Shown here one piece after another: positions 9,501-64,000 of a stretch of 64,000 nt of DNA. The stretch's first letter is position 1. Every line of letters starts with the position of its first letter. Position numbers and translations under genes: made by a program. Source of the stretch: Cyanophora paradoxa CCMP329 (taxonomy: Eukaryota > Plantae > Glaucophyta); NCBI GenBank assembly GCA_004431415.1, contig QPMI01000534.1, positions 235,099-299,098 of the forward strand, in the 5' to 3' direction. Under the pieces are notes generated by a model. The model did no database searches. It saw only the letters and a program-made list of their open reading frames with translations, and was not told the origin of the DNA.

Positions 9501-9817
9501 TCGGCGGGTGCCCAGGCCCGTGCGCATTCCAACAGCGACGAGCCGTCCGCCTGCGCCGCCGACGGGCCGAGCTCCAGCGCGAGAGAGGTCCAAAGCGTGC
9601 ACGAGTAAAGGTCCTTCGGATCGGACGCCTGCGCCAACATTGGTCACCCCAGAGGTTGACATATTCAAAGCTTGCAAGAGCCTTTGCGCACGTTTGCACA
9701 CGGGTGAAGCGGCGGGGCCGGCGTCGGCGACGGCGAAGGGGTGTACGACGGCGAGGGGCTCGCGGAGGGGGAAGGCGCTCGCGACGGGGTGACGGAGGGC
9801 GAGGGGCTCGGGCTCGC

Positions 9818-9854
<37 letters not shown>

Positions 9855-18467: not shown

Positions 18468-18504
<37 letters not shown>

Positions 18505-19945: not shown

Positions 19946-20180
19946 GCTTATCGCTGCGGGCATGGGCCGCGCGTGTTCCATGTCGCTGCAGCCTGCAGCT
20001 GGTGCTGCTCCTGCCCGCTGCTGCTCAGCACTGCGGCAGCAGCTCAGGCGGGGGGAGTCAGGCCCTGAGGCTACTACTACTAGTACTACCGGCACGGTAG
20101 TATAGCCTAGACTGCTGCCTAGTAGACTAGGCTGTTACAGTGTTACTAAGTTAGCGCTCACCGTGGCACACCGTCCCTAG

Positions 20181-24981: not shown

Positions 24982-25012
<31 letters not shown>

Positions 25013-26465
25013 GCGAGCCCGAGTCCTTCTCCCTCGGTCACCCCGTCGCGAGCGCCTTCCCCCTCCGCGAGCCCCTCGCCGTCGTACACCCCTTCGCCGT
25101 CGCCGACGCCGGCCCCGCCGCTTCACCCGTGTGCGAACGTGCGCAAAGGCTCTTGCAAGCTTTGAATATGTCAACCTCTGGGGTGACCAATGTTGGCGCA
25201 GGCGTCCGATCCGAGGGACCTGTTCTCGTGCACGCTTTGGACCTCTCTCGCGCTGGAGCTCGGCCCGTCGGCGGCGCAGGCGGACGACACATCGCTTTTA
25301 GAATGCGCGCGGGCCTGGGCCCCCGCCGACGGCGCCCTCGTCTGCACCTTCAGCCCGCAGCGCCGCAACGCCGCCCTCGCCGTCGAGGCCGCCGCGTGAG
25401 CGCTGGCCGCCCCACGCTTCCCGGGCCGCGCCTCGCGGGCGACAAACGGGCGCGCAGGTTCGCGGTGCAGCTGACGAGCGGCGAGGCGAGCCGGACGGTG
25501 TTCCTGTCGGGGGCGAGCGCGTCTTCGTTCGCGTTCTCGATGCCGGTGGCGGGCGTGCTCGGCCGGGCCCAGCTGCGCGCGTACCGAACGGCGACGCGGC
25601 GCGTCGTGGGCCGCCCACTCGACGTCGACATCGTCGGTGCGACCGGATCCCGCCCGGGCCTCGCGGGTTGTGCGGGTGTCTGATCGGGGCCTCGGCCACC
25701 GGCAGGTACTCCGGACGCGACGTCGCAGCTCGACTGCGGGGTGCGGCTGCAGGCGGCCGGCGGGCCGATTCACTGCAGTGAGCCCGCCTCCGTCCCGCGT
25801 CTGAGCGCGCGCGCGCGTTGCACTGACGCATTGTTGTGCAGCGTTGTACCCGCGGTCGATGGGGCGGGCGGTCGGGGTGGCGCTGGCGTCGGTGCTGGTG
25901 AGCGGAGTGAACGGGACGGCACAGCTGGCGGCGGGGCCCGGGGGCGCGTCCTCGGACGTGGCGGGCGTCGGGGGCATCGGGATCACGTTCTGGCCGGCGG
26001 CGGGGGCGAACGCGAGCGGCGGGGCGGTGCGGGCGTTCGTGGGGCCGGTGGCGCTGTACCGCGAGTTCGCCTTCTACGGTGCGGCCTCCGCTGCCGCCCT
26101 GCGTTGTTTCGCGCCTTGAGACTAGAAATCGCAGGAATGTCAGCTGCATCAATTTCTGTGCCGGCAATCGTTCCGACGCCGTCGTCTTTGCCGTGGCCAT
26201 CGGCCCTAGCAAGCCCCACTCCGACCCCACTGAGCACGCCGCTGCCGTCGCCATCGGCGAGCCCACGGCCGAGCCCGAGCCCGAGCCCAAGCCCGTTGCC
26301 GTCGCCATCGCCATCGGCGACGGCAAGCCCGAGCCCGAGCCCGTCGGCGAGCCCGAGCCCAAGCCCGAGCCCGTCGCCATCGCCATCAGCGAGCCTGCGG
26401 CCGTCACCGTCGGCGAGTCCGTCTGCAAGCCCGTCGCCGTCGCCGTCCCCTTCGCCAAGCATGCG

Positions 26466-26496
<31 letters not shown>

Positions 26497-29400
26497 GCGA
26501 GCCCGAGTCCCTCGCCCTCCGCCGCCCCGTCGCGAGCGCCTTCCCCCTCCGCGAGCCCCTCGCCGTCGTACACCCCTTCGCCGTCGCCGACGCCGGCCCC
26601 GCCGCTTCACCCGTGTGCAAACGTGCGCAAAGGCTCTTTCCAAGCTTGATTAATATGTCAACCTCTGGGGTGACCAATGTTGGCGCAGGCGTCCGATCCG
26701 AGGGACCTGTTCTCGTGCACGCTTTGGACCTCTCTCGCGCTGGAGCTCGGCCCGTCGGCGGCGCAGGCGGACGGCTCCTCTGTGTTGGAATGCGAGCGGG
26801 CGTGGGCCCCTGCCGACGGCGCCCTCGCCTGCACCTTCAGCCCGCGGCGCCGCAACGCCGCCCTCGCCGTCGAGGCCGCCGCGTGAGCCGCTGAGCCGCC
26901 CCGCGCTTCCCGGGCCGCACCCCGTGTCCAACCGACGGGCGAGCAGGTTCGCGGTGCAGCTGACGAGCGGGGAGGCGAGCCGGACGGTGTTCCTGTCGGG
27001 GGCGAGCGCGTCGTCGTTTGCGTTCTCGGTGCCGGTGGCGGGCGTGCTCGGTCGGGCTCAGCTGCGCGCGTATCGCACAGCAACGGGGCGCGTCGTGGGC
27101 CGCCCGCTCGACGTCGACATCGTCGGTGCGACCGGATCCCGCCCGGGCCGCGCGAAGCGTGCGCGTGTCTGATCGGGGGCTCGGCCGCCGGCAGGTACTC
27201 CGGACGCGACGTCGCAGCTCGACTGCGGGGTGCGGCTGCAGGCGGCCGGCGGGCCGGTCCGCTGCAGTGAGCCCGCCCCCCTCCTCCATCTGAGCGCGCG
27301 CGAGCGTTGTGCTGACGAATTGTTGTGCAGCGTTGTACCCGCGGTCGATGGGGCGGGCGGTCGGAGCGGCGCTGGCGTCAGTGCTGGTGAGCGGCGTGAA
27401 CGGGACGGCGCAGCTGGCCGTGGCGGCGGGGCCCGGGGGCGCGCCCTCGGGCGTGGCGGGCTTCGGGGGCGTCGGGATCACGTTCTGGCCGGCGGCGGGG
27501 GCGAACGCGAGCGGCGGGGCGGTGCGGGCGTTCGTGGGGCCGGTGGCGCTGTACCGCGAGTTCGCCTTCTACGGTGCGCAGTTGGTTTGCATTCTGATTT
27601 GTTTGCGTGTTGTTAATCGCATGTGCTTAGCGCCAGTGTGGGGTCTTCCAATCATTAATCCTTTCGGCCCGGACCCATCTCCCTCGCGCATTCCATCGCC
27701 GTCGCCGAGCCCGCGGCCTTCGCCAACAGCGAGCCCGTCGCCCACAAGCACACCGTCGCCGAGGCCGAGCCCGTCGCCATCGCCGACAGCGAGCCCGAGC
27801 CCGTCGCCCACAGCCTCTCTGTCGCCAACGCCCTCGCCATCCGCCCCGCCGCCTCCCGTCGCCGTCCCACCGCCTCCAACCGCCACGCCTTCGCCTTCTC
27901 CCCTTGGTGCGCTTCCCGCTCATACCTGTGATCCCGATCGCGAATGCCGTTTCTGACATGCGCTGCAGTGTGTGGCACGCCTCCCTCGGCCGTCCAAGCG
28001 CGGCTCGTCGGGACCGACGCGGTTGAGCTGGCCTGGAGCCCCGCTCTGGCCGCACCAAACGCAGGCTGCCCGTCATTCGTCGTCGGGCTCTTCGCGACGG
28101 GCGGCGAGTCCTCCCCTGCAGCCGCCGCTGCGCTTTGGCTATCAAAGCCTCTCTGGACGTACGGCTCGCCCGCGTTCCGCCTGACCCTCTCGGACGCTAC
28201 CGGCATCAGCGCTGGCGTGCTCTACACCGTCCACGTGGTCACCGAGTCAGCATCCCTCGGCTTCGTGACCGGCTCGTCCGCCTCGGCCCTTCCGTCCACC
28301 GTCCTGGAGTTTCCGCGTGAGTAGCCCTCAGTGCGCTGGGTTCCCACTTTACAGATTCCGACGTTCATGCACAGTGACGGAGGCGTCGACGGTTCAAACG
28401 TCCTATGAGGTCCGCGCCGCCAGTGTCGGGACCGAGTGGGTCTACATCGTCTGGGGTGCGCGGAAATGTGTTTCGTGGTTTCGCCCCCGCTGATCAGAGA
28501 ACTCATTTGGCGCGGGCAGAGTCGTTCACGTTCAGCGCGGGGGCGTTCACGGGCGCGCGCCCCGCGTCGGGCTCCGAGGCGCTGGCGCTCGTCTTCGGGG
28601 CCGGCTGGGCCGAGCCGCGCTTCGAGGTCGCCGTCACGTCGGGGGACGGCGCACGGCTTGCGTGGGGCGGCCTCGCCGGCCCCGCCCACAACGCGACGGG
28701 TCTGCAACCCGGCGCGACGTACGGCGTGGCGGTGCGGCAGGGCTGGGTCGGCCTGTCGGACTCCTTCCTCGTCGACAGCGTCCTCGCACGCACCGCGTCC
28801 CCCCCAGCTGCCTCTTCAGGTACAAATCCGAAATGGGCTTCGAACATATAATTACAAGCTCACTGAGCGGGCCACAGCTGCAGGCAACTCGACGGCGGCG
28901 GCTGCGGAGGAATTCGTCGAGATCAGTCTGGCGCTGCTCTTCTCCGACACCGAGCTGGCAAACCTCGTCGAGCCGGAGGCGGAGGCGGAGGCGGGCTCCG
29001 GGGCGGACTCGGGTTCGACGGGCTCTGGCTCCGGCACGGGCTCCGGCTCTGCGTCGGGATCGAACGCGAATTCCACGTCCACGTCGCCGACGACGTCGAC
29101 GGGCGGCGGCGGCGGCACGTCCACCGGCACCACAGGCGGCGGCACCGCCGCCAGCGCCAGCACCACCGCCACGGTCGCCTTCTCGATCACATTCAACGTG
29201 CCCTGCTCCGACCTCACCGTGCGCCCGATCACCCTGTCGGATACCAATTCGCATATGCATAATTTTAAGTATAAGGTGGATGTTTATCGCTGATGGCGTT
29301 TCTCTGTGCAGGGAATGCTGGCGAAGCGAATGGTGCAGGCGTTGACTGAGGCGCTGGACCTGGAATCCGGCCAAGTCCGCTTCACCGGCATCCGTTGCGT

Positions 29401-31194
29401 CTCATCTTCCACCACGAGTACTGCCCGCGGCCGCCGCCTCGCGGCTGCCGCGACGTCGACCACCGGCGGCGACCGCGTGCTGGCGGACTTCGTCGCGCGC
29501 GCCTCGGCGGAGGTGCAGTCGGCCGGCGCCGCGTCGACGGCGGCGGAGCTGAAGCGCATCGAAACGGCTCTGGCGGCGCCCGTAGTCGCGCAGAGCCTCG
29601 CCGAGGGCGGCGCCCCCGTCGTCCAGCTCGCCGTCAAGCCGGCGGCGACCGCGGCGCCCGCGCTGAATCCCGCCTCGCCCTCCGCGTCGGATCCGCGAGC
29701 TCGTCGGGGGTACCGGCACGAGCAGAACGACCCGGTGCCGGCGCCGGCGCCGGCGCCGGCGCCCGGCGGGCCAGTCGCCGGGTCGCAGCCGGATCAGAAA
29801 TCCGAGTCGGGCTCGGGCGGCCTGCCCGTGGCGGCCGTCGGCGGCGCCGTGGGCGGCGCGGCGGCTCTGGCGGCGGCCGTCGCCGCCGCCGTCGTCCTCC
29901 GCCGCCGGAGGCGGCAGCAGCGCTCCGCCTCCGACCGCGGGCTCCGACGCGGCAGGCGCCCGTCCGCCGCCCATCGACATCGACGTCGACGGGGCGGCCC
30001 CGACGTCGATGCGCGATATCAACGTTCACGTCGACGCGGCCACGGGCGCGACTCGAGCTCGAAGCAGGCGCGGGCGCTCTCAGCATTCTGATGGAGGAGA
30101 CGCCCGCCCAGGTCGGGGCCCGCCTCCGCATGCAGCTGGCGCCCCCCGCGCCGGCGCCGGCGCAGCGTCGGCGTTGCCGTCGCCGCGCGTGGCGGTGGCG
30201 CTCGCGGCGGAGGACGCGGCGGAGTGCGTCGACCTCTACGAGGAGCCGCCGGCCCCGACGGCGAAGGTGGCGCGGGCGTCGGGGACGGGTCAGGGCAGCA
30301 GCAGCGGCCCGGGCGGCGCCGTCATCGCCGCTTCGTCGCCGCCTTCCGTCCCGAAGGCCGCCTCGACCTCCGCCTCCGCCTCAGCCTTCGCGGCGCCGCG
30401 CGTGCCCCCGCTGAAGATCGACCGCGTGGAGCTGGATCCATCGCCCGAGCCAGGAAACGCGAATTCCAAGTACGCAGTGTTTTCTGCGCCCCGCGCTCGA
30501 ATATATTTCGTTTGGCTGACGCGGCGCGACGCGCTGTGCAGGCGGCCGCAGCTGGCGGCGCTCAGCATTCTGGTGGACGAGAGCCCGGCCGAGGCGGGCG
30601 CCCGCCTGCGGAGGGCGGGCACGCCCTCCCCCCGCGTCGAGGGCCGCCCAGCCGACGACGCCGACGACGACGACTGCGTCGACGTGTACGATGACGCGAG
30701 GGCGCCGGCGCCGGCGCCGGCCGCCGCTGCGCCGGCCCCGGCCCCGGCCCCGGGCCGGGCCTCGAGGCTCCGGGTCAAAGTGCCGCCGGCGATCGCCGGC
30801 CTGGCGGTCCGAAGCGGCAGCGGCAGCGCCTCCCCATCGCCGCGGAGGCTCGAGGAGATGTGCGTCCACTCTAGATCTAGACTCCGTATATTTTGTTGGG
30901 CGGCCCCACTGATCCTCGCCGCCCCCGCCTGCGCGCAGTCGCGCCGGTCGGGATCGGGATCGGTCGGAGAGTCCGAAGGCGGCGGCGGAGCTCTGGCGGG
31001 ACCCGCACCCCAGTGGCCCCCCGTGCGCTCTGTGTTCTGGCACGGATCGCAGGGGTACCCAGTGCTGATCGGGAGTCGGCGTGCGCAGGGCCGGCAAAGG
31101 GGGGCAGGACGGCAGGCCCCCAATTCCCCGCGGCCAGCCGTCGCCGCCGGCCGCGGCCGCGGCCGTCACCGTCAACGTGAACCTCTCCTCGTGA
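23317..31194 (+). CDS. Large modular type-I cell-surface glycoprotein/receptor, copy B (3 double-Ig-like modules); inverted paralog of 3569-11455
   Basis: Signal [24 protein letters not shown]; modules at ~23600-24480, ~25200-26080 and ~26690-27570, each followed by (SP)n; FN3-like exons at 27970-28820; RGRRL; [34 protein letters not shown] at ~29820-29910. Apparent 1-bp indels at ~29910-30170 (sequencing error or decay). The 3' end is approximate. Confidence 0.75.
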
Positions 31195-49206: not shown

Positions 49207-50325
49207 CTATTCGACCTTTTGATGGCCCCAGAACCCGTAGCTCGGCCCCGGCTCCGGCTGAAGCTCAGGCTCCGGCCCTGGCCCCGCCCCGCCGTCCTCG
49301 CCCGCCGCTGGGGCCCCCTCGAGGGCCCCCGCCCCCCGGTCGCCCTCGCCCGCAGGCGCCGGCGCCGGCGCCGGTTCCGCGAGGGCCTCCGGGGGCGCTG
49401 GAACAGGCGCCGGCCCCTGCCTCCTCCGCTCGAGGGCGCGGCCCAGGGCGGGTACCCCGAGGTAGACGGCCCAGCCCAGGACGACGACCCACGCCAGGGC
49501 CAGGATCGGGTCCTCCAGGCCTAGCGGCCCGGGGGGCCCCCTCTCGAAGGGCCCCCGCGGCGCCGCGACGGGTACTCCGTCCAGCGGATCGTGGCCCGAG
49601 ACGTTGCGAACGAAGTCCACGAGGGCGGGGAGCGTGCGGTCGCCCCAGAAGCGGCTTCGCTCGCCGGCGCGGACGGCCAGGATGGTGGGCAGGCCGTGCA
49701 CCGAGAAGCGGTTCGACGTCCTGCGCCGCGCGCGCGAGAGCGCTTCTCAGCGGCTTCGCTTGAGAGCGGCGCGTGCGCGGGCGGGGGCGGAGAACGGACG
49801 CTGGGGACTTGGAGGCGTGCACGGAGTAGAAGCGGATGTAGGGGAAGGACATCGCGAGGGCCTCGAAGACGGGCCACGTCTCGTAGCTGAAGTAGCACCG
49901 CTCGCTGTAGAACATGACGACCTGAGCGCGCGGCGCGGGTCGGTCAGCTGCGCATGCAGCCAGCGTCGGTGTGACCGGCAGGCGCGGCGCGGGCGCACCA
50001 GAGTGTCGCTGCGATTCGCCGAATCCATCGCTTTCACGAACTCCACGCCGGGCACGTCAGCTACGCGCCCGACGTGCACGGAAGGCAGCCCAGTCAGCGG
50101 ATCCAGCGCTCCCAGGTCTGCGCACGCGCGTGAGCAGCGTACAAGAGTTGCGCGCGGGGGAGGCAGCTGGCCTGCAGTCGGGCCCGCGCTCGGCGACGCG
50201 CTCGGCAAAGGCGATGCGTTCTCCGTGGCGTCGGAGCCCTCGCTTCCCGCGACCAGAGTCGCGCATAGGATGAGAATCAGTGCCGCCAGCGGGGCCAGGC
50301 GCCAGGGAGGGCCCCGCGAAGGCAT
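49207..50325 (-). CDS. Membrane-anchored thioredoxin-domain protein (TXNDC15 / plant APR-like type)
   Basis: Signal peptide LAPLAALILILCATLVAG; VMFYSERCYFS (CxxS) ...PVFEALAMSFPYIRF; HGLPTIL...RFWGDRTLPALVDFV; TM PILALAWVVVLGWAVYLGV. Confidence 0.8.
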
Positions 50326-50431
50326 CACCCGAATTGCGCGGTATCCCCCCAAGGGAGAAGTCACTCAGAAGTCACTCAGAAGTGGGTCAGCAGTGCTCGG
50401 AAGCTGCTCGAAAGCAACGCAGATCGAAGCG

Positions 50432-52350
50432 ATGCGGGCAGTGAAGAAGCTCATCACGTCCATGAAGATGAAGGAGGGCGGCGGGTTCATCGTGAGGCGG
50501 CCCGTCGGCTCGGGCGGGCTGTCGTCCGTCGATCCGCTCCTGATGCTCGGTGCGCGTTTGCGTTTACAACGTACACCTGTGCCTGACCGCTCCTGCAGAT
50601 CACATGGTTCGCCGGCCCGTTTGAGCCGTCCGGCGCCGCCTGCGCGCTCCGACGCATTCCGCCGCTTGCAGGGTCCGGTGGAATATGGACCTGGCGAAGC
50701 CGTTGGCGCCCCCGACCAGTGCGCAAGCGCCGCCCTCGCCGCGCCCGATGCGACGACGTAATATGACGTCGACACGAATCGGACTGCGACCCGCCCCCGC
50801 GCAGCCCGCACCGTGGCCAGGAGACTGTTACGTACATTCTGTGAGCATCCGCGAAGCCCGGCGCGCCCCCGCGTCCCGCCGGACTCGAAACCGACGCGAG
50901 GGCCCGCGCCGGGCGGCGGCGCGCGCGCGCGCAGAGAGGGCGAGCTGCAGCACAAGGACTCCGCCGGCCACACGGGCGTCCTGCAGAGCGGCGACGTGCA
51001 GTGGATGACCGCCGGCCGCGGCGTCGTCCACTCCGAGGTTCCTTCCTTTCGCCCCCTCTTCCTTTCTATGCTCCTAGAGCTCAAGCCGCGACAGATGCCC
51101 TCGGATCGAATCATACGCGAGGGCGGCCGCATCGAGGGCTTCCAGGTCCGCGCCGGATTCGAACCCGCGCTCCGGTCCCCGCCAAATTCGCCGAGCCGCC
51201 GCGCCGCAGCTCTGGGTCAACCTGCCCCGCGTGGACAAGATGATGCCCCCCCGCTACCAGGTGCACATCGACATCAGCCTCCGCCCCTTCTTCCTTCTTT
51301 TGAGCATGTACCCCTCATACAGGACATCCGGGCCTCGTCGATCCCCACGGCGACGTCTCCGGACGGGAAAGTGACGGTGCGGCCCCGTACCCCCCCCTCA
51401 CCCCCCCGCCCCCTTGACAGACACTTATCTCAACATCTCCTCAGGTTCGGGTCGTGGCGGGGGAGAGCATGGGCCATAAGGCTGTCATCGACACGCGTAC
51501 CCCCATCATGTGCGCTGCAGCTCCAGGGGCCGCGCCCCGTAATCGTACCCGTGCTCGTCGGTGACCCGTACCCCGCAGGTACCTCGACATTGCACTCGGT
51601 ACCCCCAAGCCCCCGCCCCCTGCCGCTCTGTTCCCCGCCGATCCGCTCGAATCCCCCCGCAGCGCCTGGGGCAGAATTCACGCAGCCGGTACCCCCCGAC
51701 TTCAACGCGTGTGCACCCCCCCTGCCCCAGGAATCCACCCGCGCGGATTCGAACCCGCGCAGCTTCGCGTACGTCTTCCGGGGGGCGGCCCTCTTCGGTC
51801 CGGCCGGCCAGGCGAGCGAGCCCCTACCCCCGCACCGGAAACTGTACCCCCACACCCACCCCTAATCGTGTACCCCCAGGAGCGGGAGGCGAAGGAGAGC
51901 GATGCCGTGGAGCTGGGGCCGGGCGACTCTCTCCGCATGCTCGGCGGCGACCAGGCGCGCGTACCCCCCTTCATCTTCCCGCCTTCCTCTCCTGAGCGTG
52001 TACCCCCCTTCCAGGGCGCACGGCTGCTGCTCATCGGGGGCCGGCCCATCAACGAGCCCGTCGTCTGGCATGGGCGCGTACCCCCCTTGAAGCAAGTGCC
52101 GCTCGCGTACCCCCTCCTAACGGACGCGCAGGCCCTTCGTGATGAACGCGCGGGAGGAGATCGAGCAGGCCATGCAGGTCACCGCGTACCCGCCTCTCCA
52201 CACGTGCCCCCCTTAAGACGCATCGTACCTCCCCTGCAGGACTACCGAGCTGGGCGGCTGGGGGCGATCGAGGGGGCGGAGGAGCGGTACCGGCAGACGG
52301 AGGCGGCTCGGGCGCGGGCCGCCGCCTCCGACAAGCTCTCTACTCACTAG
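50432..52350 (+). CDS. Pirin family protein (about 16 exons)
   Basis: [15 protein letters not shown]|[22 protein letters not shown]...[32 protein letters not shown]|PFVMN; stop TAG 52350. Confidence 0.92.
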
Positions 52351-52650
52351 CTAGCTGTAGCTCTAGCCGGCCAGGCCTACGTATACCGGTCCGGCAGGCC
52401 TAGGGGCCGGCCGCGTTCGAGTTCGCGAGCTCGCGGCGACTTGCGCCGAGTCGCGCGCGCGCCGGCGAGGCGAACGATCCCTCGAGCTCGCGCCCTCGTG
52501 CCACGGTGAACGCGACAGGCACCTTAAGCTTAAAGCTTGCCGGCGCCGCTCCGACTCAGGGCCGAGGCTCATGAACGTAGTATACGCCTCGGAGCCTAGT
52601 ATACGTAGCCTCGTACGCGTACAACGGTACTAGCTAATACCGTAGTACTA

Positions 52651-52888
52651 CTGTAGGAATGCTTAAATTGGCGCGTAGTCAAATTGCCGAATTCGACCAA
52701 AACCGGAATTGCCGTGGCGATAAATTAAATATTGCCGAAACTCTGGATTTCTTCTATGGCGCCATACAAAATCGGTCGTTTAGCCCTACCCCCTGAGAAT
52801 TGCCGTGGCTTAAAATTGCCAAATTCGGCCTCTCGGCAATATACGTATACGGCAATTTAAAACATCGGCTAAAAAAGCAATCCTACAG
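52651..52888. mobile_element. TA-flanked MITE (238 bp)
   Basis: TIR CTGTAGGAATGCTT / AAGCAATCCTACAG (1 mismatch); TA on both sides; internal ATTGCCG repeats. Confidence 0.75.
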
Positions 52889-52953
52889 TACTAGGCTATG
52901 CCATGATGATATGTACCGTACGCGTACTACGGTAGCCTAGGCCTCGGTAGCTA

Positions 52954-53212
52954 CCGTGTAAGACTTAAATACCGCGTCACAAATTAATTAGCGCGTTCCA
53001 AAAATTTGGGCCCGATTTGCGCTTTACTAATTAAAGTTACCGCGCTACCAAATTACCGCGCCGCGGGCCCGCGGCGTTCCATGATGAACTTCCATCGTCT
53101 TCGAAAATGTATTATTTGTTAGCAAAGGGGGTAATTCTGCGCTACCAAATTACTGCGTTCTAAAAATTTTGAGCGCAGTAATTTGGTAGCGCAGTAGTTA
53201 AGTCTAGGGCGG
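52954..53212. mobile_element. Probable degenerate MITE
   Basis: AGACTTAAATACCGCG (52961) inverted to CGCAGTAGTTAAGTCT (53190), 14/16 match; internal CTACCAAATTAC repeats; right TSD not clear. Confidence 0.5.
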
Positions 53213-55178
53213 GGGGAGTCCTGAACGAACATACAGTAGTTCGAACGAACCTGAACGAACAGCCATTTTGCTGAACTGAACGAACATGAACAAAGCGGCC
53301 GCTGTTCACTGAACAGGGGAAGATTACTCTAGCAAAGCGTACGAGTAATCTGCTTTCTTCTAGCGAAGGCCGAGCCGAACGCGAAAGCAGCTTGCACGAG
53401 CCGCGCGCCTGCGCATGCGCATGCTGCTTGCGATCGCGATCATCGGATCGCGATCGGACGCACGGCGTACCCAGATCTGCGAGCCAGGGCGCGGCGGTAC
53501 CCGCATATATATGCATCTGCGATACGGGCTCGCTGTACCCGGGCCACCGGCTCAGTCGTCGGGTACCCGTCGACTGCCCGATTTGCCGGGCGTGTTGCCG
53601 ACCCTCCCACCATCCCCTACATCACCGAAGCTTTACGTTCGATCGAAGCCCCGCCGAGCATTTACAAGCCCTCGGCCTAGGCCTTGCAATTGACCAGCTA
53701 CTTTTCATGGTCTTGGATCGAATTCGATGTCAGGTTTGCTGCGGCTGGCAGCTGCAGGCTGCCAGGCTGCCAGCTGCAGGCCTAGGCTGATCACCACGGG
53801 GTTTATTTCTTCCCCTGGTCTATTTTTCATGTACAGCAGTTTATCACTTCACAGGCTTAGCCTAGTAGGAAACGCGTTTCCTTAGGTTGCTCAGCATCAC
53901 TAGCTATAGTTTTCAACCTTAGTTCCTTTCATTCCGCCGTCCGAGATCTAGAGAGGTTGTTTTCCGGTTGTGACCTTCCCACACAGCGCTTCAAAAGAAT
54001 TTATTAGCGCCAAGTCGAAATTCATTTATTCCCCCCCCAAAAGGGGTACGCTAGAGTCTAAGCGCTAGCCTCAGCGTTAAGGCATGGCGACGGCGACCTC
54101 CACCCCATCACCTCTAGCTCTGGCAGCGAGCAGTATTGCCTAGCTAACATCGATTGGATGGGTCCTCGCCACCTGAGGCCGCCCGGATCGCCCGCCCGCC
54201 CAGGAATCGGCTTCTGAGCGGCCTGACGCCAGCGGCGCATCCGACGTATCCACCGACTAGCCGGCATGGCGAACGCTCTTTCCGATTAGGGCGAGATCGG
54301 CGCGCTGTAGCTAGAACGGCTGTCTCACGCACCACTTTTTGAACCTTGGTCACTGGGGGAGCGGGGACATGGAAATCCGGCAATGTACAGCGCTCTAGCT
54401 ATCGCTTTTGACGCGTTCGCACTCGGTCGAAGCGCGCTAGCTAGCCGGGATGGTTGTACGACTTCACGCCATAGTAGCCCGGATTCTCCCCCCCCCCTCG
54501 ACTTGGCGGAAAAATATTCTTTTGAAGCGCTGTGCCAGGGCCCGGAAGCTACGGCTTCACGCCTTCCGCGGGCCTAAGCGCAAGCTTTTGGCTGTTCATG
54601 CGGGGGTTTATCTGCTACGTATACGGCGGATCTTTATTTTCCAGTTGGCTCAAGAAGCTGTACCCCCCTCGAAATCGCTTACCCCCTGCGGGCGCGATAT
54701 GAGTACCCGGGCAGCAAATGCGTACCCCCCGGCACACGGGGAGTGAAGAGATATCCTCCCCAACCACGCCCACGAGGCAATGAGTGGTCTACCTTTTCGG
54801 GCCCTAGGCCTGGGCCCTCTCGGCGGCCCCTCCTTTGGCGCTGCGCGCCCTTGGGACGCGGCCCAATTGCAATGAGGTGCCCCGCACGGCCGCGGGGCTC
54901 TACTTGCTGCCGGCCGGACCACCGCGGGGCGGCCGGTTCTCTTCTTACCCCCTCATCCTTCGAATTCCTTGCGGCGGCCAGAGGCCGGCACGCTGCGGAC
55001 GCGTTTGGCTGCGGCCGTAAGCGTGGAAGAACAACTTGTCAGCAAGGGGGCCCCCGGGGCCCCGGTTTCGGGCGATTTTCGGCACCGAAATTGACACCGA
55101 ATTCGAAACCGTCGGAAACAGGCCTAGGCCTAGGTGATTTTGGGCACGGAAATTAAACCGTCGGAAACCTGTTCAAGG

Positions 55179-55366
55179 TAGAGATGGGGCTCGAGCCGGG
55201 CCGGCTCGAGCCGAGCCGAGCCGAGCCGGGGGGGCGGACCGGCTCGAGCCGGACTCGGTCGGCTCGAGCCCACGGCGAGCCAAGCCGCTCGAGGGCTACA
55301 GCGCGGCCGGCTCGAGCCGGGTCGAATTTTGTTAGGGGCGAGCCGGCGAGCCGGCGCGCCGGCTAG
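55179..55366 (+). repeat. hAT-like terminus with GAGCC/GGCTC subterminal repeat array (partner end not found)
   Basis: Begins TAGAGATGG, followed by many GGCTCGAGCC/GAGCCG copies in both orientations. Confidence 0.5.
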
Positions 55367-55828
55367 ATTATATTCCTAGTCCTGGAATATTCGCCAACGG
55401 CTCAATTTATATATACGTGGGCGTCGACCTGGAATCCGCGAACCGCCAGCTCTCGAGCTTTATGAATCCATTGTTAACCCTCGGAGGTTTGCGTGAGTCA
55501 CGCATCACGGAGATTTGAGTGTTATATTGCGATCTCGTACACCCGACACTAACAGGGGGGGCTAGCACTAACCCACGCGGGGCAGTAACAGTCAGCGTAC
55601 CCCTCGCGCGGACACCAACAAGCACAGCTGCTGACAGACTGCCTTACCCCTCTGGGGCCCCGCGGGGCTAACTCCACTGGGGTGCTAACTAAGTGCTGTA
55701 CCCCTCTCGGGCCAGCTTCTGATTCGGCCCAACATTTTCTGAGCCTAGGGCAAAGTGAGCTTAGCTTGAAGCAGCACGTCAAGTGCGGCAGCGCTAGCCC
55801 AGTAGTAGCCAGCGGCATCATTTGCAAT

Positions 55829-56436
55829 ATGTCTGGATCATTTGATTGGAATGCAGCTTTTATCTTCGCCCTTCTCCCAAACGGGGGCTACACGAGCTTT
55901 ACAGTAGACAAGCGACGGGCACCAGCGCTCTGGATGTACCAATGGCAAGTAGCCTCTGCGGATGGACAGAGCTGGCCGTACACAGTATTGCCAGACGGGA
56001 AGGTGGCCTACGCTCATCATTTTCTATTCGGGTACCCCCTCGGCCTGCCCAACGACGACTGCGCGTCGACAGCATCAGCGGGTGCAAGCTGGACCTGCGC
56101 AGGGAGAATCTACGGCTCATGGACTGCGGAGGTCGGCTTGGGGCGGTTCCTGTGGCAGGCGACAAGCTTCCAAGCAACAAAGGCAAGTGTCTGACAAAGA
56201 GGAGGAAGCGAGCCTACGAACAGAGCCAAGTCCAAGCAATGATTGACGAGCTGTCTGCAGAATCAAAGGAAAGCCGCTACTGGCGCGTCTCTTTTCGCCC
56301 AGGCCAACCGGCAGTGATAGAGTACGGCCTTGCCGCTCATGATGCGATAGCAAAGGCGCGCAAGATAGCTGAAGCAAAGGATGTGCACTCTGTAAGTCGC
56401 CCAGCTGCAGCTGTACATGTTGTGTCCACCTCATGA
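55829..56436 (+). pseudogene. Degenerate HNH_3-type endonuclease-like gene, frameshift near 56056
   Basis: FTVDKRRAPALWMYQW...YAHHFLFGYP in one frame, continuing in another frame as LRVDSISGCKLDLRRENLRL (cf. VDHINGxKLDNRRENLR). Confidence 0.65.
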
Positions 56437-56655
56437 AAAGTTCTAATAGAAGTTTCCAAGAGGTGGTCACATCCCGCAAGTCTGCAGAGCTCGAGCTCTT
56501 GCCTGTACCCCGGTCCTCTAGATGCCATGATATTGAGTACCCCTAGCAGGGCTGTGATCCCCCAACCCCTCCTGCCCGCCAGGCCGTCGGTTGTGCTGCA
56601 CTCGACTTTTTCTGAAGCACTCATGCATATCAACTGCGAAATCAAAACGAACATT

Positions 56656-59600
56656 ATGCACGTCAACTTGCTAGACGAGCTGCCCTTCGCCGAGGAGGCA
56701 GATCTAGATGCCGAGGAAGAGGATCTCTTTGCATGCTTCCCGTTCGTCTCGGTCTCCAAGGCCTGGTCGCCTGCGATGGGGGTGGTCTACGCTTTGAGCC
56801 TCGCCCCGGGCGTGAATCCTTGCCAGGTCGCGCCCGGCGAGTCGGCTTGCGATGCCGCGAAGGCTGTCGTGGGCAGGACGGGGGCGTCAGCTTCTCCGCG
56901 AGCTGGAGGATGGACAGAGCGCGCACTTCGTTCTGCAGGGCGCCGAGGCCTCCACCATCTTCTCTTGGCTCTTCGGCGGCCTCGCGCCTGGGTCGGAGCT
57001 CCGCCTCTGCATCGAGCCTGACGGGGGGTAAGCCTGCGCCGAGCTAAAGGGGCTCCCGCTGTAGGCTTGCCTGCAAACTTCTTGGAAGATCTGCCCGCGG
57101 ACTTCTTTGACGACTTGCCCGAAGAAGGGACGGAGGCGGCGGGCCAGCGGAGAGGGACCGATGGAGGGACAGAGGAACAAGGCGCCGGTGAGAGGGGTAC
57201 AGAGCAGGCCGCTGGGTACAGGTCGCTGGAGACCAAGCCGCGGGCGAGATCCTCAAGCGGGCCCTCGCTCTCCTGCGGGGCAGCATGTCGGTTCGGGGCG
57301 AGCTGGAGAGGGCGGGGACGCGCTCGGGGTGCACCTGCGCCTGGAGTCGTCGAGGGTGCTGCAGGCGAGGACGGAGCCCGACGGGTCGCTGGCCTTCGAG
57401 CTCGAGGTGGAGGCGCGTCCGAACTCCCGCCTGGAGGTCCAGATCTGGAACTTCAGCCTGCAGGCGAGGCTCTCAGATGGAGGCGGCGGCGCCAAGACGA
57501 AATCCTACGCAACGGACCTTCGGCGCGGCGTCTCCCTTGACACCGCCCTCCCGTCCCTCCTCCTCGCCCTGCGATCCGTCGGCCATGCTCCATTTGCGGC
57601 GAGGGAGGTGGACGAGCGGTACCTGAGCCGCGAGCTGCTGGAATCGACCTTTGGCGAACTGAAGCCCGATCCCGGGGCGCCCCGCCGGATCGACGTGATC
57701 TGCAGCGGGCTCAACACCGGCAAGACGAAGGCGCTGATTGAAGCCTACGTCCGCCCGGCGCTCGAGTTGAAGCGCAAAATCCTCGTGCTCACCTGCCGTC
57801 GGGCCTTCTCTCGCGACCTCAAGCGCCGCCTCGACGAAGCCTCCCTCCCCTCGGTCGCCGTGCTCTACTCGGACGTCTGGCGCCCCAAGGACCCCGAGAG
57901 CGCTCACGGGACGTGGGGCTTCCGCGATCCGAGGATACAGGTCGTCATCTGCACGATCGATTCGGCTCACAAGGTGCAGGACGACTGGCAGGGGCTCGAG
58001 GACCTGGGCGAGGGCGGCGGCGGGCGCCTCCTGGTCGTGCTCGACGAGCTCTCCTCCCTCACGCGACACTTCACCTTGAGCTCGACCTTGGAGCCCGTGG
58101 CCGGTGGGCTGGGGGCGCGGAGCCTCCCCCGCAACCTGCGTTGCGCCCGTCTCTGGCGGGGAATCGAGGGCGCACAGGAAATCGTCGCGCTGGACGGCTA
58201 CGTGAGGCCCACGGACCTCGCTTTCCTTGGCAAGTCGGCGGCAGCAACGGGGGCTCGGCTCGCCCTCCTATTCAACCATCGGCGGACCTGCGACTGGCGG
58301 ATGCGCCTGTCAGACAGCCCCACCGCCGTCGAGCGTGACCTGATGTCAAGGTGCCGCCCCGGCGGCCTGCGCGCCATGATCATCGTCGAGACAGCAGGCC
58401 GGGCGCAGGCATTGGCAAGCGCACTTAGGAAGCAGGCCGCCGAGATCTTGGAGCGAGATCCAGCCTGCGCCCCCGGGCCCTTCACAATTGGAATTGTCAT
58501 AGGGCAGGCTAGAGATAAACAGTTCGATTACAGTGACGACGGCAGGGTCCACGTGAAGAAGCTCGATCTGGCCGAGGAGGGCGGCTACAAGACCTGCGAC
58601 GCGGTCATTGCGACGTCGGCCTTGGGGGCGGGCGTAGACTTCTCGGATGCGCACTTCGACAAGATCTACGGAATCTTCGACGCCAAGATGCCCCTACTGG
58701 AGGCCGACGACATCGTACAGCTGCTGTTTCGAGTGAGGCGGCTGCGGGGCCAGGGCGAAGGGACAGGGGTAAAGGGAAGCGAGCACCTGCTGCTGTCCGT
58801 TCGGCGGTGCAGCGTGACGCCCGTTCGCGCCTCTGATGCTGCACGGCACTGGCGCGAGTCAGGCGACACCCCCAACGGCCCCGGCCTCCCCACCGAGGCG
58901 CCGGCAGTGGAGACGTACCTGGATCTGAAAGCCGAGCACAACGGAGACAGGCGCGCCTCCATGCCCTCCAGGCACCTGAGCGTTGCCGCCCGGCTCCGCC
59001 AGCTCTCCATCCGTCCTTCTGAGAACCTGTGGACGACCGCAGATCAGGGCAAGCCCTCGGCGAGGAAAGAGCAAGAGCGACGGAAAATGGAGATCGACTG
59101 GGTGCACAAGGCTGCACCGATGGACGTGCCGCAGATCCTGGCCCTTGCCGAGTCCTGGGATGGCTCACTGGAGAGCACAGCGTTCGAGACCGTCCTCTCG
59201 CTGGCGCGGCAGTCAATTGCGGATTTCATGGTGCTAGACCTGGCGACGCTCACTGCGGGGGACGTCGAGTGGATGTGGGAGTCACGCTACTCTCTTGGCC
59301 GCAAGGCGACGGCGAGCCTTGTGCTCCTGGACAGTCAGAGCATCGAAGAAATCGAGCCGCCGAGCGAGCGGCTTTACCTTTCGAAGCTCGTGGCCGTATT
59401 CAGGGCGATTGGCTGGACGGGCGAGGGTGACCGAGCAAAGGACGTCCTATGGGTCGATAAGCTGTGTCGGGGCTTGGCGTCGGAGCAAGGCCGAGCGGCT
59501 TACCGCGAGCTGCAGAGTCTGGACCCGAAGTGCCCGCCCTTCGATCCCGCTAGGTACAAGTCAGAAAGGGCCGTCGCAATGCAGGCCCGCCGAGTGGCAA

Positions 59601-59875
59601 GGTACCTGTTCGAGACGTGCAGGGGTGTCAGGAAGGTCTCAAGCGTGCGTGATGGAGGAGCGATGCAGAACAGAAAGCGCAAGTACCTAGCATGCGAGGG
59701 GGATCCGATGAGCGATGTGCTGGGCAGACAGGCGGGCTCAGCGGCGCAAACGTCAGTCCTTCACTATGCAGACGCGTACCGGGTTTTCGTGAAGTGCTAC
59801 GATCTCATACGCCTGCGCTCGGAGGTGGCACTTGCTGGCACAGTTAGAACGAGCGCAATGGAGGTAGGCAAGTGA
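56656..59875 (+). CDS. Herpesvirus UL9-like origin-binding SF2 helicase
   Basis: CSGLNTGKT, VLTCRRAFSRDL, VICTIDSAHKV, VVLDELSSL, IVALDG, ATSALGAGVDFSDAHFDKIYGIF and IVQLLFRVRRL correspond to UL9-family motifs I-VI in an uninterrupted ORF from ~57320. The N-terminal part needs one intron (~57028-57064) plus frameshifts at G-runs, so the start is uncertain. Confidence 0.85.
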
Positions 59876-60024
59876 TTAGTGTTCGAGAAACGGTCCAATG
59901 TGTACATCTGACAATTAAGACAAGTGAGAACATCTGAACATCTAAACATTTGCTCTGCGAGTGTGCTGCATTCTGTTACATCTGCACCGTAAGTTACAAG
60001 GCGATACAACGAAATTTGCTTGAC

Positions 60025-63000
60025 CTAGGCCGTCGGGATCTTGGCGCCAAAAGCCCGCCAAACGCGCCCTGTGCTCCCACCCCGCTTCGACCAGACAACG
60101 CCCGCTGCCTCGTAGGCGCCCTTGATCGTCGTGACGCTGGAGTTGAGCACGTACTTCTTTGCAGCGGCGTCGATATCTGCAGCCTTGAAGTAGTTGAGCG
60201 CGCGCAGGTACTGCTTGAAGTGCTCCTGGAGAGCGGGCTGATCTGCCGTGTCACTCGGCTGCCCCGTGGCGATGGTGCCGATCCACTGCAAGCAATTGCA
60301 GAACGTTAGAATGTGAACACAAAATGAGCAAAGGCCGAGAGCGGCACCTTACTCCAGCAGTACTCAATCGATTTGACGGTGCTGTTGCGCTCAGTCGCCT
60401 GCTGCTGTGTGCTGAGGATCTCGCTGCGACGAAGTGCAATATCGGGGCAGTAGAATTGGGAGGCCGACGACAAGGGATCGTAAAGCTTCTGGAGGCCGCC
60501 GCCGTCGATGAAAGAGAGGAGGACGCGACGAGAAATGATCATCTTGGCAAGCGCTACGCCAAGGTTGTAGGGCTGCAGGCAGCTCTCCTTGAAGTTAGAC
60601 TCGGCTTCGACCTGCGGCCAAGCGATCATGATTGAGACCAGCCAGATCGGAAGATCGGAATCACCGGCTTGTTGAAGGGAAGGTACAGAAGTCGGCGGCT
60701 CATGTCGCCCCCGCAGTCCTTGTAGAGGTGCTGAGCAGCGAAAACGTGAGCTCAAAGCCGAGCTTAAAGCCGAGCTCAAAGCCGAGCAAGACACACCTGA
60801 GAGAGGCCCGTGGGGTTGCCAGCCGTCCAGACAACAGCCCGCAGGCAGGCCTTGAGCGGGGGCTTGTTCTTTGCCTCGATGCTGACTGGATCGTGCCCGC
60901 TAATCGTCTTGATCTTCGACTGCAGCGACTGGCAGGGCAAGAGGATGTGAGCTCAAGAATAATAATTGACTCTGGCAAACGGACCTTGAGCTGCGTGGAG
61001 TTGCCAACTTCGTGAATGAAGAGGGCAGAGACAGGCTCGTGGCAGTCGTAGATGCAAGAAAGCATGAACTGCGGCGAGGAGTCCTTCGATGGGGTCTCGC
61101 AGGTGATGAGCTTCTCGACGACCGCCTGCAGTGTGCTCTTGCCGGTGTTGCCGAGCCCCTCGAGGTGCACAATCTTCGAAGGCGCAAAACGTTAGAGAGC
61201 TGAATGGGAGGTCGAATAGAGAGGAAGTTGAATAGAGAGCGGAATAGAGCGCAGCAAGTCAGCGCACCGCGTCCTGCCTGGGATCACTGGCGATGCCGAT
61301 GCCACACACGCCGTAGAAGAAAGTGTCATTGATCCCTTGATCTCGGCAGATCTTGTCCAGCGGGCAGAGCATGGCCATCAAGCTGTTGTAGTCGTACTGA
61401 CAGCCAGTTGCGTCCGCCAAGCAGTTGGGAAAGTAACTGCACGGGCCGCGCGCCCCTCAGAGAGTTAGAGATAAAGGGAGAGAGCAGCCAGCTCACCGAT
61501 AGCCATAGGAGAACGACTCGGAGTTCTCCCACGAGGCCGGAATCTCCATGACAGAGGGAGGGTTCGCGCCGTTGTAGCGGTAGAGCACTCCGGGATCGCG
61601 GATGTTCACTGCGACGTCGTCGAAGCTGACAATGAGATCGGTGGTCTTGACCTGCTTAACCCAAGCGGGGTCATGCAGGATGGAGGCGACGATCTTGTCG
61701 AGCAGCTCGGCGCGGCTGGAAGCAAACACGTCTGACTTGCTGCGGCTGGATGACATGATGCGGGGCCGCTTGGGCTCGTGCTCGCGTGCGTCTTCATCCT
61801 CCTTGATGGCGAATGCAATCCGGTCGAGAATACGGTTGGCGTACGCTCGGACTGTTGCGTGGCCCTTGAGGCCGTTGAAGGGCGTGTAGCTGTACGTCGG
61901 GCGCCGATCGGATGTGAAAGCAAGTTGCTGGGCGAAAGGAGGGAGCTCGCAGTCAGATGGTATCAAGGAGAATCGGTGGATTGCAATGAGACCTAGAGCT
62001 CACCAAAAGCTCGCCCCGGCGGGGATCGAATGCCATGAACTCGTCGTCCAACTGCTGACGCACCGCTGCCAGGACGCCAGTCTTGATGGACCACTCGGCA
62101 AGAAGGGCATCCGTGGCCTCCGGTGAAAGCGGCTCAACGGGCGGGGCCTCTGCGATGTTTGAGATTGCACCCTAGGAGAAGGAAACGAAAATCAGTCGTA
62201 GTCTTGAGAGGCGGGCGCAAGTCTAGAGAGGCCGCTTTAGAAAACTGGGGCGAGAGAAGGCGGAGCAGACCTGGGATGAGGCGCCCAGCAAGACTGCGGG
62301 GTCGAAGCACGCAGCCCAGTCCATCAGTGCATGCTCACAGGCCTCCTTCGGGCAGACATCTTCGATGCGATACTTCGAAGACACCCCGTTGGGCTTGGCG
62401 GCGAGGAGGAGAGTGAAGCGCTTCGGCTGGCGGTAGCTGAATGCCACGTTGATGATGACTTCGTATGAACGCTCGTTCTCATCTGCGGCACAGGTGCCAG
62501 TGAGATTGAGAGCAAGTTCATGCAAGGGATAATCTAGATAGAGACGAGAAAGACAAAGCTGCGCGCATACCAAGTACATCCATGGTCGTCTTGAACTTGA
62601 GCATCGAGATGCCAACGGTCGCCTGGGGGCGGCGGACACACTGGCCCCTAGTGGACTCGATGGCATGCAAGCGGACGGGCCCAGAGGCGAAGTCGCAGGT
62701 GCTGTTCGGACGCGAGAGGTGCATCGTGAGGACCTTCTCCGTCAGGGCGACCGCCTGCTTCAGGCCGTTCACGGCGTACAAGGGCTCCCAAGCCTGCGCA
62801 CGGGCCAGAAGTGAGCCGCCGGCGCATGAATGAAAAGAAGGGAAAAGGGAGAGAAAGAGGGGAAAGCGAGCGCGCAGTCTGAAAGTGCGCACGGGCTCGT
62901 CTGAATCCGGCTCATTCGCTGCAGGGGCCGCGGGCTTCCCTGGCAGCGAGGGCTCCGAGGGCGACGGGGACGAGATCACGGCGGGCGACGAGGTCGGGCG

Positions 63001-63200
63001 CAGCGGCGTCGAGCTCGGGCCTTCAGCGTCGTTGAGCTGCCTTCGAGATGGAGTGAGCGTCGCCGAGCCCGGCGTTCTGCTGCACGGATCCGGGCCCCGT
63101 GAGCAGCGGGCGCTGGGCGGGATTGCGGCATGGGTGCGCACTTCGACTCGGCAGTAGCGGAGGCGGGAGAGACGCGAACGAATGCACTGCGAGCGTGCTG
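60025..63200 (-). CDS. D5-like superfamily 3 helicase, about 11 exons
   Basis: Spliced D5_N-like LIVSFDDVAVNI; Walker A HLEGLGNTGKST; Walker B LFIHEV; B' KIKTISGHDPVSIEAKNKPP; motif C VWTAGN; Arg finger MSRRLLYLPF; wHTH-like C-terminus GRVWRAF; stop TAG 60025. Start codon uncertain. Confidence 0.85.
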
Positions 63201-63814
63201 CTCCATGCAATCGGCCTCACTGCGCACATGGCAGGTGAGCATGGAGCTGGCACTCGGGCTGTGGTTGCGAGAAAACGAGGCAAATCCCGCGCCCCGGCGG
63301 ACCAGCGACTCGCGTGCACCTTCTTAGTCGATAGAGACGCAAAGCGGATGGCGCGCTCGCAGCCTGGATCGTCCGGGCTCACCGCCGACCTGCGCCCCGC
63401 CGAATTCAAAATCCCGCGACAAGGGTGAGCGGGCGCCGCGCAGGTCGGCTTCAAATGCTTCTAGGATGAGGCTCTGAGGTCGCAGGATCGGCGTGCACCT
63501 CTGTGAGGCGGAGAGAAGCGAAGGTCGGTGCGCGACTTGCCCTCGAACCTTGCGGCGGGCGGCGGGCGACCCTGCGGCGGCACAGTGCGATCGCCGGTCA
63601 AGAGAGCTTTCCGTAGCAACTTTCCGGGCTTCGGGAGCCCACCGTGGCGCGAAATGGCGGTCCGCGGTCCGGAGCACCCCAAGGACGGCGGCGGCGCGAC
63701 CGGCGAGGATGCCGACGAGCTCAGAGCTACCTGCTCTATCGCCTGCTGTGCCGGAGCGACGGCGGGCTCGCTAGTTCAAGAGCAGCTCGAAGCTAAGGGG
63801 GAAGACTGTGGAGG

Positions 63815-64000
63815 GGGGTACGTGTTATGTCCAAATGTCCAAGTGTCCAAGTGTCCAAGTGTCCAAGGCCTAGGCCTAGGCCTACGATGAGCTAGCGCTA
63901 GCTATAGCGGGGTACATGTTATGTCCAAATGTCCAAATGTCCAAATGTCCAAATGTCCAAGGCCTAGGCCTATAGCTACGATGAGCTAGCGCTATAGCTA
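63815..64000. repeat. 94-bp tandem repeat, each unit with five RTGTCCAA 8-mers plus palindromes
   Basis: Units start GGGGTAC at 63815 and 63909; (A/G)TGTCCAA x5, then AGGCCTAGGCCT and TAGCGCTA; array truncated by the window end. Confidence 0.9.

Follow-up and report, generated by a model that had tools for sequence, protein, structure and literature searches.

Primase-helicases of the D5/P4 family (poxvirus D5, phage P4 alpha, TIGR01613, and 7ola) have an SF3 helicase core with a full set of motifs. Subtelomeric Y′ elements of yeast are multi-copy, helicase-only and intron-bearing and can amplify, a likeness to the helicase pair described below, although they encode one SF2 helicase, of another family. 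In glaucophytes and cryptophytes, PLVs occur in multiple chromosomal copies and encode SF3 helicases and HNH proteins (PMC12220804), and a large PLV survey assumed that such elements have no introns (PMC10120064). Adinto-like sequences have been reported in the glaucophyte Cyanophora paradoxa (PMC8502044). The mriyaviruses are described as predicted nuclear replicons without a DNA polymerase, having an SF3 helicase with an inactivated or replaced primase, or a UL9-related SF2 helicase; according to that description no mriyavirus combines the two helicases, and all have an HUH endonuclease (10.1101/2024.02.29.582850). CyRepA proteins of plasmids are reported to contain a DEXDc helicase domain (PMC10079941). 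Spliceosomal introns have been described in elements that are not domesticated, namely mirusviruses (PMC12768974) and a punuivirus GEVE (PMC13692296).

Here we analyzed a window of 64,000 nucleotides of the C. paradoxa genome, in which a D5-like gene faces an SF2 helicase open reading frame (ORF). The D5-like protein shares with the D5/P4 family the full-motif core, a similar length and a similar core position; it differs in giving no profile match to a primase, PriCT or D5_N domain and in being encoded with 11 spliceosomal introns. The likeness to PLVs extends to the same host class. However, the visible part of the element has no capsid, ATPase, rve or tyrosine recombinase, its D5-like helicase gene is intron-rich, and its UL9-like partner is of a kind counted in 0 of 156 glaucophyte PLVs in the tables of that survey (PMC12220804). 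In contrast to mriyaviruses, the two helicases are neighbours both at this locus and on two further contigs, and HUH endonuclease and major capsid protein gave no match in the visible ORFs, that is, left of the window's right end. The D5-like gene has 3.5 introns per kb, whereas the genome-wide means given for mirusviruses and punuiviruses reach up to 0.65 per kb, with 2.5 per intron-bearing gene in the punuivirus (PMC12768974, PMC13692296); none of their hallmark genes was seen in the visible part. We identified no telomere repeat at the locus. In its presumed way of working, the element is like the modules with which nuclear DNA viruses and plasmids replicate, and we assign it to no family. 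The features are listed in Table 1.

Table 1. Positions of the features in the window.
Feature	Position	Strand	Basis
Non-coding high-copy repeats, from host pirin gene to element	52335..55400		Depth of about 130-fold and of 7-17-fold
Approximate left edge of the sequence common to copies	55408		Loose contig ends before 55408, X17, X18
Small ORF, split in the window; two RNA runs have one more G at 56060	55829..56436	+	By-eye resemblance
UL9/CyRepA1-like SF2 helicase ORF, no plus-strand introns	56656..59875	+	Profile and Atlas matches
Spliced antisense RNA over the SF2 ORF	56864..58216	-	Introns 56864-56926, 57018-57070 (GC-AG), 57273-57334, 58136-58216
D5-like 3′ UTR introns 59779-59720, 59686-59550	59550..59779	-	Joints in X15, X16, X17
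D5-like SF3 helicase gene, 12 coding exons, 788 aa	60025..63206	-	Splicing, RNA joints, identity to P0013
D5-like exons 1-3	63206-63142, 63079-62893, 62793-62571	-	
D5-like exons 4-6	62482-62271, 62171-62004, 61927-61497	-	
D5-like exons 7-9	61436-61268, 61173-60985, 60928-60797	-	
D5-like exons 10-12	60730-60665, 60611-60348, 60285-60025	-	
SF3 ATPase core, aa ~485-612, over three exons	60665..61173	-	Profile and structure-database matches
N-terminal region, aa ~84-227, at the primase place of D5 proteins	62271..62793	-	Low-confidence helix / beta-meander / helix prediction
D5-like 5′ UTR, two spliced introns 63642-63572, 63319-63220	63220..63642	-	RNA joints
94-bp tandem repeat, 1.9 copies in the window	63815..63994		Repeat analysis

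Splicing of the D5-like gene

The D5-like gene is real, spliced and expressed. A three-frame reading of the minus strand with GT-AG pairs gave 11 introns of 53-99 nt in the coding sequence and a product of 788 aa with zero internal stops, which agrees with the first-pass annotation of about ten GT-AG introns, whose traced junctions restore the frame. The translation is identical to the annotated C. paradoxa model P0013 (tig00021037_g17490.t1), of which P0004 is a 787-aa NAGNAG isoform. Branch points of the CTCAC/CTRAY type were found in 10 of the 11 introns, 20-32 nt from the 3′ end. Keeping any one of the introns would produce a premature stop, except for intron 2, which is 99 nt long and in frame.

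Four of six RNA-type runs listed, from three studies, were compared over positions 54500-64000. That these runs are RNA is our presumption, supported by the intron joints; none of them is recorded as RNA. In their contigs, introns 4-11 (8 of 11) were joined directly, seven of them in all four runs and intron 6 in three of four; the joint of intron 3 came from contiguous record coordinates in run X15. Introns 1 and 2 had no joint among the best 15 of 35 joints in these contigs. The acceptor of intron 8 was placed by RNA at 60929, 9 nt from the first-modelled 60920. Introns 2, 3 and 5 were crossed gap-free by DNA contigs. Therefore, the joints in the RNA contigs represent splicing. Splicing extends into both UTRs; the 5′ UTR has no in-frame ATG upstream of its second intron, and the 3′ UTR introns lie antisense to the end of the SF2 ORF. 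The GC3 of the gene is 0.79.

An introner origin of these introns was rejected, since no intron matches another. Introns 7-10 are unlikely to have arisen from coding sequence by intronisation, as the core aligns across them to phage primases without long gaps. The intron density had been called host-like, and the comparison with the host agrees: 11 introns stand against a reported mean of 9.2 per host gene, with a mean length of 86 bp (PMC6704402).

The helicase core and the N-terminus

All the SF3 motifs of the D5-like protein are intact: Walker A, Walker B with its glutamate, B′, C and the Arg finger. The motif names follow common usage for SF3 helicases. Exon 8 holds both Walker A (aa 491-498 region) and Walker B, and exon 9 both B′ and C. 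One intron of the core immediately precedes the Walker A strand, another separates Walker B from B′, and the Arg-finger exon has an intron at either end. Introns had been placed between Walker A and B, between B′ and C and at the Arg finger; only the last of these positions was recovered.

In profile searches the core matched TIGR01613 at E 1e-9, PHROG primases at E 5e-6 and DUF5906 at E 1.3e-5; the last score (26.2 bits) was below the cut-off of 27.6, which paralogues pass at 29. It also matched PDB 7ola at E 9e-4 and P0025 at 96.6% in hhalign. Detectable homology is limited to aa ~454-620, in which only about 150 residues align. A search of 1.84 billion representatives returned four proteins at E<=0.001: a pair of closely related paralogues from Cyanophora, an unnamed fragment of 122 aa that was 93% identical to the N-terminus, and one phage-type PriCT_2/D5_N/SF3 protein (E 1e-5). 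At this threshold neither an orthologue outside C. paradoxa, as far as other glaucophytes are covered, nor a PLV or NCLDV protein was found among the representatives. Phage proteins gave 22 weak primase matches, with E from 2e-4 to 4e-2 in the best 15 of the 22, and the plasmid search gave no match. In viral and metagenome contigs, a scan that needs exact short motifs confirmed no relative for D5, the SF2 alignment or P0025. On these similarities, we assign the protein to the D5/P4-family SF3 helicases. The donor of the gene cannot be named because the outside matches are phage and plasmid primase-helicases only. Thus, a D5 helicase with an intact core, as annotated, is upheld by DUF5906, TIGR01613 and 7ola, while the label "viral-type" cannot be narrowed.

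The first 83 residues form a low-complexity Ser/Pro tract. The region that follows gave no match to primase profiles (AEP, PriCT) at E<=1, in line with the earlier remark that AEP motifs were not visible there. By eye only, a possible degenerate motif-II-like stretch was noticed near His127, without flanking acidic motifs. Predicted folds were poor, with a pLDDT of 30 for the full-length protein and 44 for aa 83-225. With the low-confidence N-terminal model, Foldseek retrieved nothing at E<=0.001 in PDB or BFVD, and the best hit of the VIA fold search (Z 5.1) lay among unrelated beta-sheets. The Pur-alpha/Whirly rows were weak and non-significant. AEP folds were absent from the fold-search lists, but with so poor a model their absence does not exclude an AEP. 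Atlas gave no usable match for aa 84-240. A common fold of the N-termini of the two helicases was rejected, as hhalign gave just 0.6%. Neither D5_N nor a winged-helix domain had a Pfam match, and D5_N-like and winged-helix parts were suggested by eye only; our own HMMs of these parts, built from 12 phage-type references, did no better than shuffles (53/300 and 33/300 shuffles reached the real score). It is likely, judging from the sequence, that the primase of this protein was lost or replaced. A novel domain may stand in its place, as the first-pass annotation suggested.

The partner helicase and antisense RNA

The SF2 ORF matched Herpes_ori_bp (PF02399) at E 6e-5 (21.7 bits, above the cut-off of 20) and CyRepA1 at E 6e-15, yet below the family cut-off (55 of 200 bits). 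It matched herpesvirus origin-binding proteins in PDB at E 0.011, its Atlas neighbours fell in PF02399 clusters at 0.96-0.97, and the plasmid search gave one weak CyRepA1 match (E 9e-3). By family, this partner is UL9/CyRepA1-like and of a putative origin-initiator type. Its SF2 helicase domain matches both the CyRepA1 plasmid proteins and herpesvirus UL9; unlike CyRepA1, it has no DUF3854 primase domain and is nuclear and chromosomal in a eukaryote. The window copy shifts frame near its 5′ end. As the shifts are located in G runs and an extra G at 57213 is present in three RNA runs, they are probably assembly errors.

Six spliced joints were listed over the SF2 ORF, and all of them were minus-strand introns (five GT-AG and one GC-AG). 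Two of the six are the 3′ UTR introns of the D5-like gene, in one 2706-nt contig (X15). The only spliced RNA observed over this ORF was antisense; the contigs carry no strand information. A protein encoded by the spliced antisense RNA was rejected, as the longest Met-ORF was 150 aa after these six joints were applied. Overlapping UTRs are reported to be frequent in the C. paradoxa genome (PMC6704402). Regulation of the SF2 ORF by antisense RNA is therefore only a possibility.

Surroundings of the helicase pair

To the left, the host genes end with a pirin gene, which is followed by 3 kb of high-copy non-coding repeats. These repeats may or may not belong to the element. The GC content of the element genes is 0.56-0.66, versus 0.74 for the host genes in the window. 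The small ORF beside the SF2 ORF presumably resembles HNH-AP2 proteins, judged by eye, and its catalytic positions appear substituted; HNH_3 and AP2 profiles gave no match for its two frame pieces. On the other side of the pair, each unit of the 94-bp array contains five 8-bp TGTCCAAR repeats and short palindromes, which makes the array a candidate origin or terminal array. Its single-strand fold was not above shuffles (z -0.43).

Among the ORFs scanned from 53 to 64 kb, up to the right end of the window, we found no capsid, packaging ATPase or integrase/recombinase (rve, tyrosine). No transposase, HUH nuclease or polymerase was found in the visible 8.6 kb of the element, which runs off the window. 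Neither a target-site duplication nor an empty site was seen, the left edge had no inverted partner within the window, and an Rfam search of 52-64 kb gave no match.

Copies and read depth

Four contigs carry D5-like gene models, and near-identical SF2 models likewise occupy four. Three contigs have both, as pairs with consecutive gene numbers (g17489/g17490, g23511/g23512 and g21178/g21179); there is one further D5 copy (g23477) and one further SF2 copy (g21566). The contigs with copies are tig00021037, 21763, 21762, 21428 and 21462. The D5-like protein copies are 91-92% identical. As the genome of C. paradoxa has been argued to be haploid (PMC6704402), they are not alleles. Among the annotated paralogues, some, such as P0006 and P0009, are short or shifted. 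A sister SF2 family of about 50% identity adds at least nine gene models; for this family no D5-like counterpart was found among the 1.84 billion representatives at E<=0.001.

Read depth was compared in 4 of 14 DNA-type runs over positions 50000-64000 and normalised to single-copy flank contigs. Of the 30 bins, 23 were used; the seven left out overlapped contig ends, a high-copy repeat or the sister family. Normalised depth over D5 was 4-8 in X2, X3 and X5 and 11-15 in X1, as summed contig depth, which is no copy number. In X1 the depth climbs rightward: it is 7 at the left, reaches 14 where D5 starts and ends at 36 in the final bin, for which the other three runs give 10-13. For six bins in the flanking repeats, the four runs agree to within about 20%. 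With the same caution about contig depth, these values suggest 5-7 copies, and about twice that in one of the four DNA runs. The excess in X1 hints at a copy gain in one culture, starting at the right end, but it may be technical.

Signs of selection

Between the D5-like protein and its paralogue P0014, 2 of 128 residues differ in the SF3 core and 60 of 575 elsewhere (Fisher P = 4e-4). The low divergence of the core could result from gene conversion instead of constraint. In the SF2 ORF, 15 of the 26 best-supported variants listed were synonymous, against 25-30% expected (P = 0.0005-0.004), and omega was about 0.3 for the variants listed downstream of the frame changes. The nine exonic variants listed for the D5-like gene comprised two synonymous and seven non-synonymous ones, five of them in the Ser/Pro tract. 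They look neutral, although they are few and the best-supported among a longer list.

Discussion

The object of interest at this locus is the repeated two-helicase block rather than the D5-like gene alone. We give a probability of about one half to the reading that the pair is the replication module of a mobile element in nuclear DNA that descends from a virus or plasmid and copies itself with host polymerases. The first-pass annotation had offered two explanations for the introns, domestication or an element transcribed and spliced by the host; the latter fits best. The D5-like gene is likely to be part of such a self-copying element, transcribed by the host, and not a tamed single host gene, because a block with an intron-free second helicase is repeated at several places in the genome.

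It is possible, but in our view doubtful, that the block is instead the left end of a larger endogenous virus (a PLV, a mriyavirus-like virus or a giant-virus insert). Capsid, ATPase and integrase genes would then lie beyond the window, and D5 would be a latency-phase replication gene spliced by the host. Depth is still high at the window's end, and GEVEs have been reported in C. paradoxa (PMC12344493). The 800 bases to the right of the D5 start, however, consist of UTR and tandem array, without a dense viral gene cluster. Glaucophyte PLVs encode D5_N in 40 of 156 cases and HNH_3 in 40 of 156, but Herpes_ori_bp in 0 of 156, according to Table S6 of that survey (PMC12220804). UL9-like helicases are known in mimivirus, ASFV and some mriyaviruses, although the same source states the mutual exclusion of SF2 and SF3 helicases in the last group (10.1101/2024.02.29.582850). 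Spliceosomal introns are described for punuivirus latency genes (PMC13692296) and mirusvirus genes (PMC12768974), whereas PLV-type inserts are described as intronless (PMC10120064). Against such a viral insert there also stands the lack of any PLV or NCLDV protein at E<=0.001 among the 1.84 billion representatives.

The introns had also been read as a sign of domestication, and a host gene family, passively duplicated, with helicases that serve the host, for example in the maintenance of repeats or chromosome ends, has to be weighed. Intron density and length are host-like and the UTRs are spliced; the gene is expressed in runs of three studies, its catalytic core is conserved and its GC3 is 0.79. 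However, active nuclear viruses are described as carrying spliceosomal introns (PMC12768974, PMC13692296), so there is no step from introns to domestication. The gene is multi-copy, with at least four D5 models in one haploid genome, it is in a fixed pairing with a second helicase, and no orthologue outside the species was found. This second helicase is intronless, lies under antisense RNA and comes from an expanded family, and the block, with its GC of 0.56-0.66 versus 0.74 for host genes, is set among high-copy repeats. Depth moreover varies between runs of the same species. We thus consider this explanation unlikely and do not retain domestication as a conclusion from intron density. Still less probable, to a degree that we would call slight, is a decaying relic whose transcription and splicing are mere noise. 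The spliceosome also removes cryptic introns antisense to the SF2 ORF, some paralogues (P0006 and P0009) are short or shifted, and the listed D5 variants look neutral. But eleven introns restore one frame of 788 aa, and 10 of the 11 would truncate it if retained; the SF3 motifs are all intact, substitutions avoid the core, and the SF2 ORF has a synonymous excess.

If the helicase pair is the replication module of a mobile element, its working may be pictured as follows. The D5-like gene would be expressed through host Pol II and the spliceosome. By analogy with UL9 and CyRepA proteins, the SF2 protein would melt an origin after binding to it, and the 8-bp repeat array is a candidate for this origin. 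An SF3 hexamer of the D5-like protein would unwind the fork and, as the primase is apparently lost or replaced, DNA synthesis would fall to the primase and polymerases of the host. Recombination, repair or an integrase whose gene lies outside the window might put additional copies back into the genome. Antisense RNA reading through from D5 across the SF2 ORF may hold the initiator down.

More tentatively, and with rather little confidence, we suggest a new element class. It would be a nuclear replicon of about 9 kb or more, without capsid or transposase, that combines a UL9/CyRepA-like opener with a primase-less, intron-split D5 helicase. In living Cyanophora cultures it would amplify with an iteron-like array at its end as the starting point, and spliced antisense read-through would throttle its initiator. 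A literature search gave no description of this element, although supplements of the genome paper and further tables of the methylation paper may list the loci. One supplement of PMC12344493 does not name these contigs.

The D5-like gene breaks the shortcut by which an intron-rich viral gene is taken as domesticated. It also breaks the shortcut by which small endogenous viral elements are taken as intronless, and the gene finders used for those would miss it. With one heavily spliced gene and one intronless gene side by side, the element offers a natural experiment on intron gain. If it is autonomous, it replicates by a strategy that the recognised classes of transposons do not cover, and the two-fold gap in depth between cultures allows its activity to be tested directly in a laboratory alga. 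An element of the nucleus that amplifies itself could also seed a glaucophyte vector.

Transcripts and reading frames around the helicase genes

In and near the UL9/CyRepA1-like SF2 helicase ORF the reading frame changes by one base at several runs of G; at 56060 and 57213 the contigs from RNA have one G more. These changes are probably assembly errors that truncate the annotated SF2 model. RNA antisense to this protein-coding ORF had six canonical-looking introns removed, one of them GC-AG. Cryptic sites are readily used by the C. paradoxa spliceosome. In the facing D5 helicase gene, a NAGNAG tandem acceptor at intron 1 gives two annotated isoforms of 787 and 788 aa.

The HNH-like ORF was nearly without coverage in the RNA-type runs X15 and X16. 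In X17 and X18 its RNA contig depth was 208-357, far above that of the helicases; contig depth measures expression poorly.

Features of the window, by position
Feature	Position	Strand
Inverted duplication, arms	5182-11239; 23564-29663
Subtilase gene	~13300-19950	minus
Non-coding repeats	52335-53268
Short inverted repeat	53137-53194
HNH-like ORF	55829-56436	plus
One-base frame changes at G runs	56060; near 56880; 57213; near 57310
Antisense introns	56864-59779	minus
Short joint	57829-58031
D5 intron 1 acceptor	63080	minus

Repeats, duplications and related families

The inverted duplication is large, with arms 87-99% complementary; the duplicated gene carries tandem Ser-Pro repeats and a repeated module of ~1.5 kb. 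The subtilase gene is rich in introns (Peptidase_S8 match in one exon, E 7.5e-12); its GC content of ~0.57 is well under that of adjacent host genes, and palindrome-rich non-coding DNA flanks it. Directly after the end of the pirin gene lie non-coding repeats at ~130x single-copy depth, which enclose the short inverted repeat and are probably MITE-like.

A sister family of UL9-like SF2 helicases, at ~50% identity, comprises at least nine gene models (proteins P0010-P0012 and P0016-P0023). The short joint, at a depth of ~50-68x single-copy, may derive from this family, which may itself be a high-copy, helicase-only element family.
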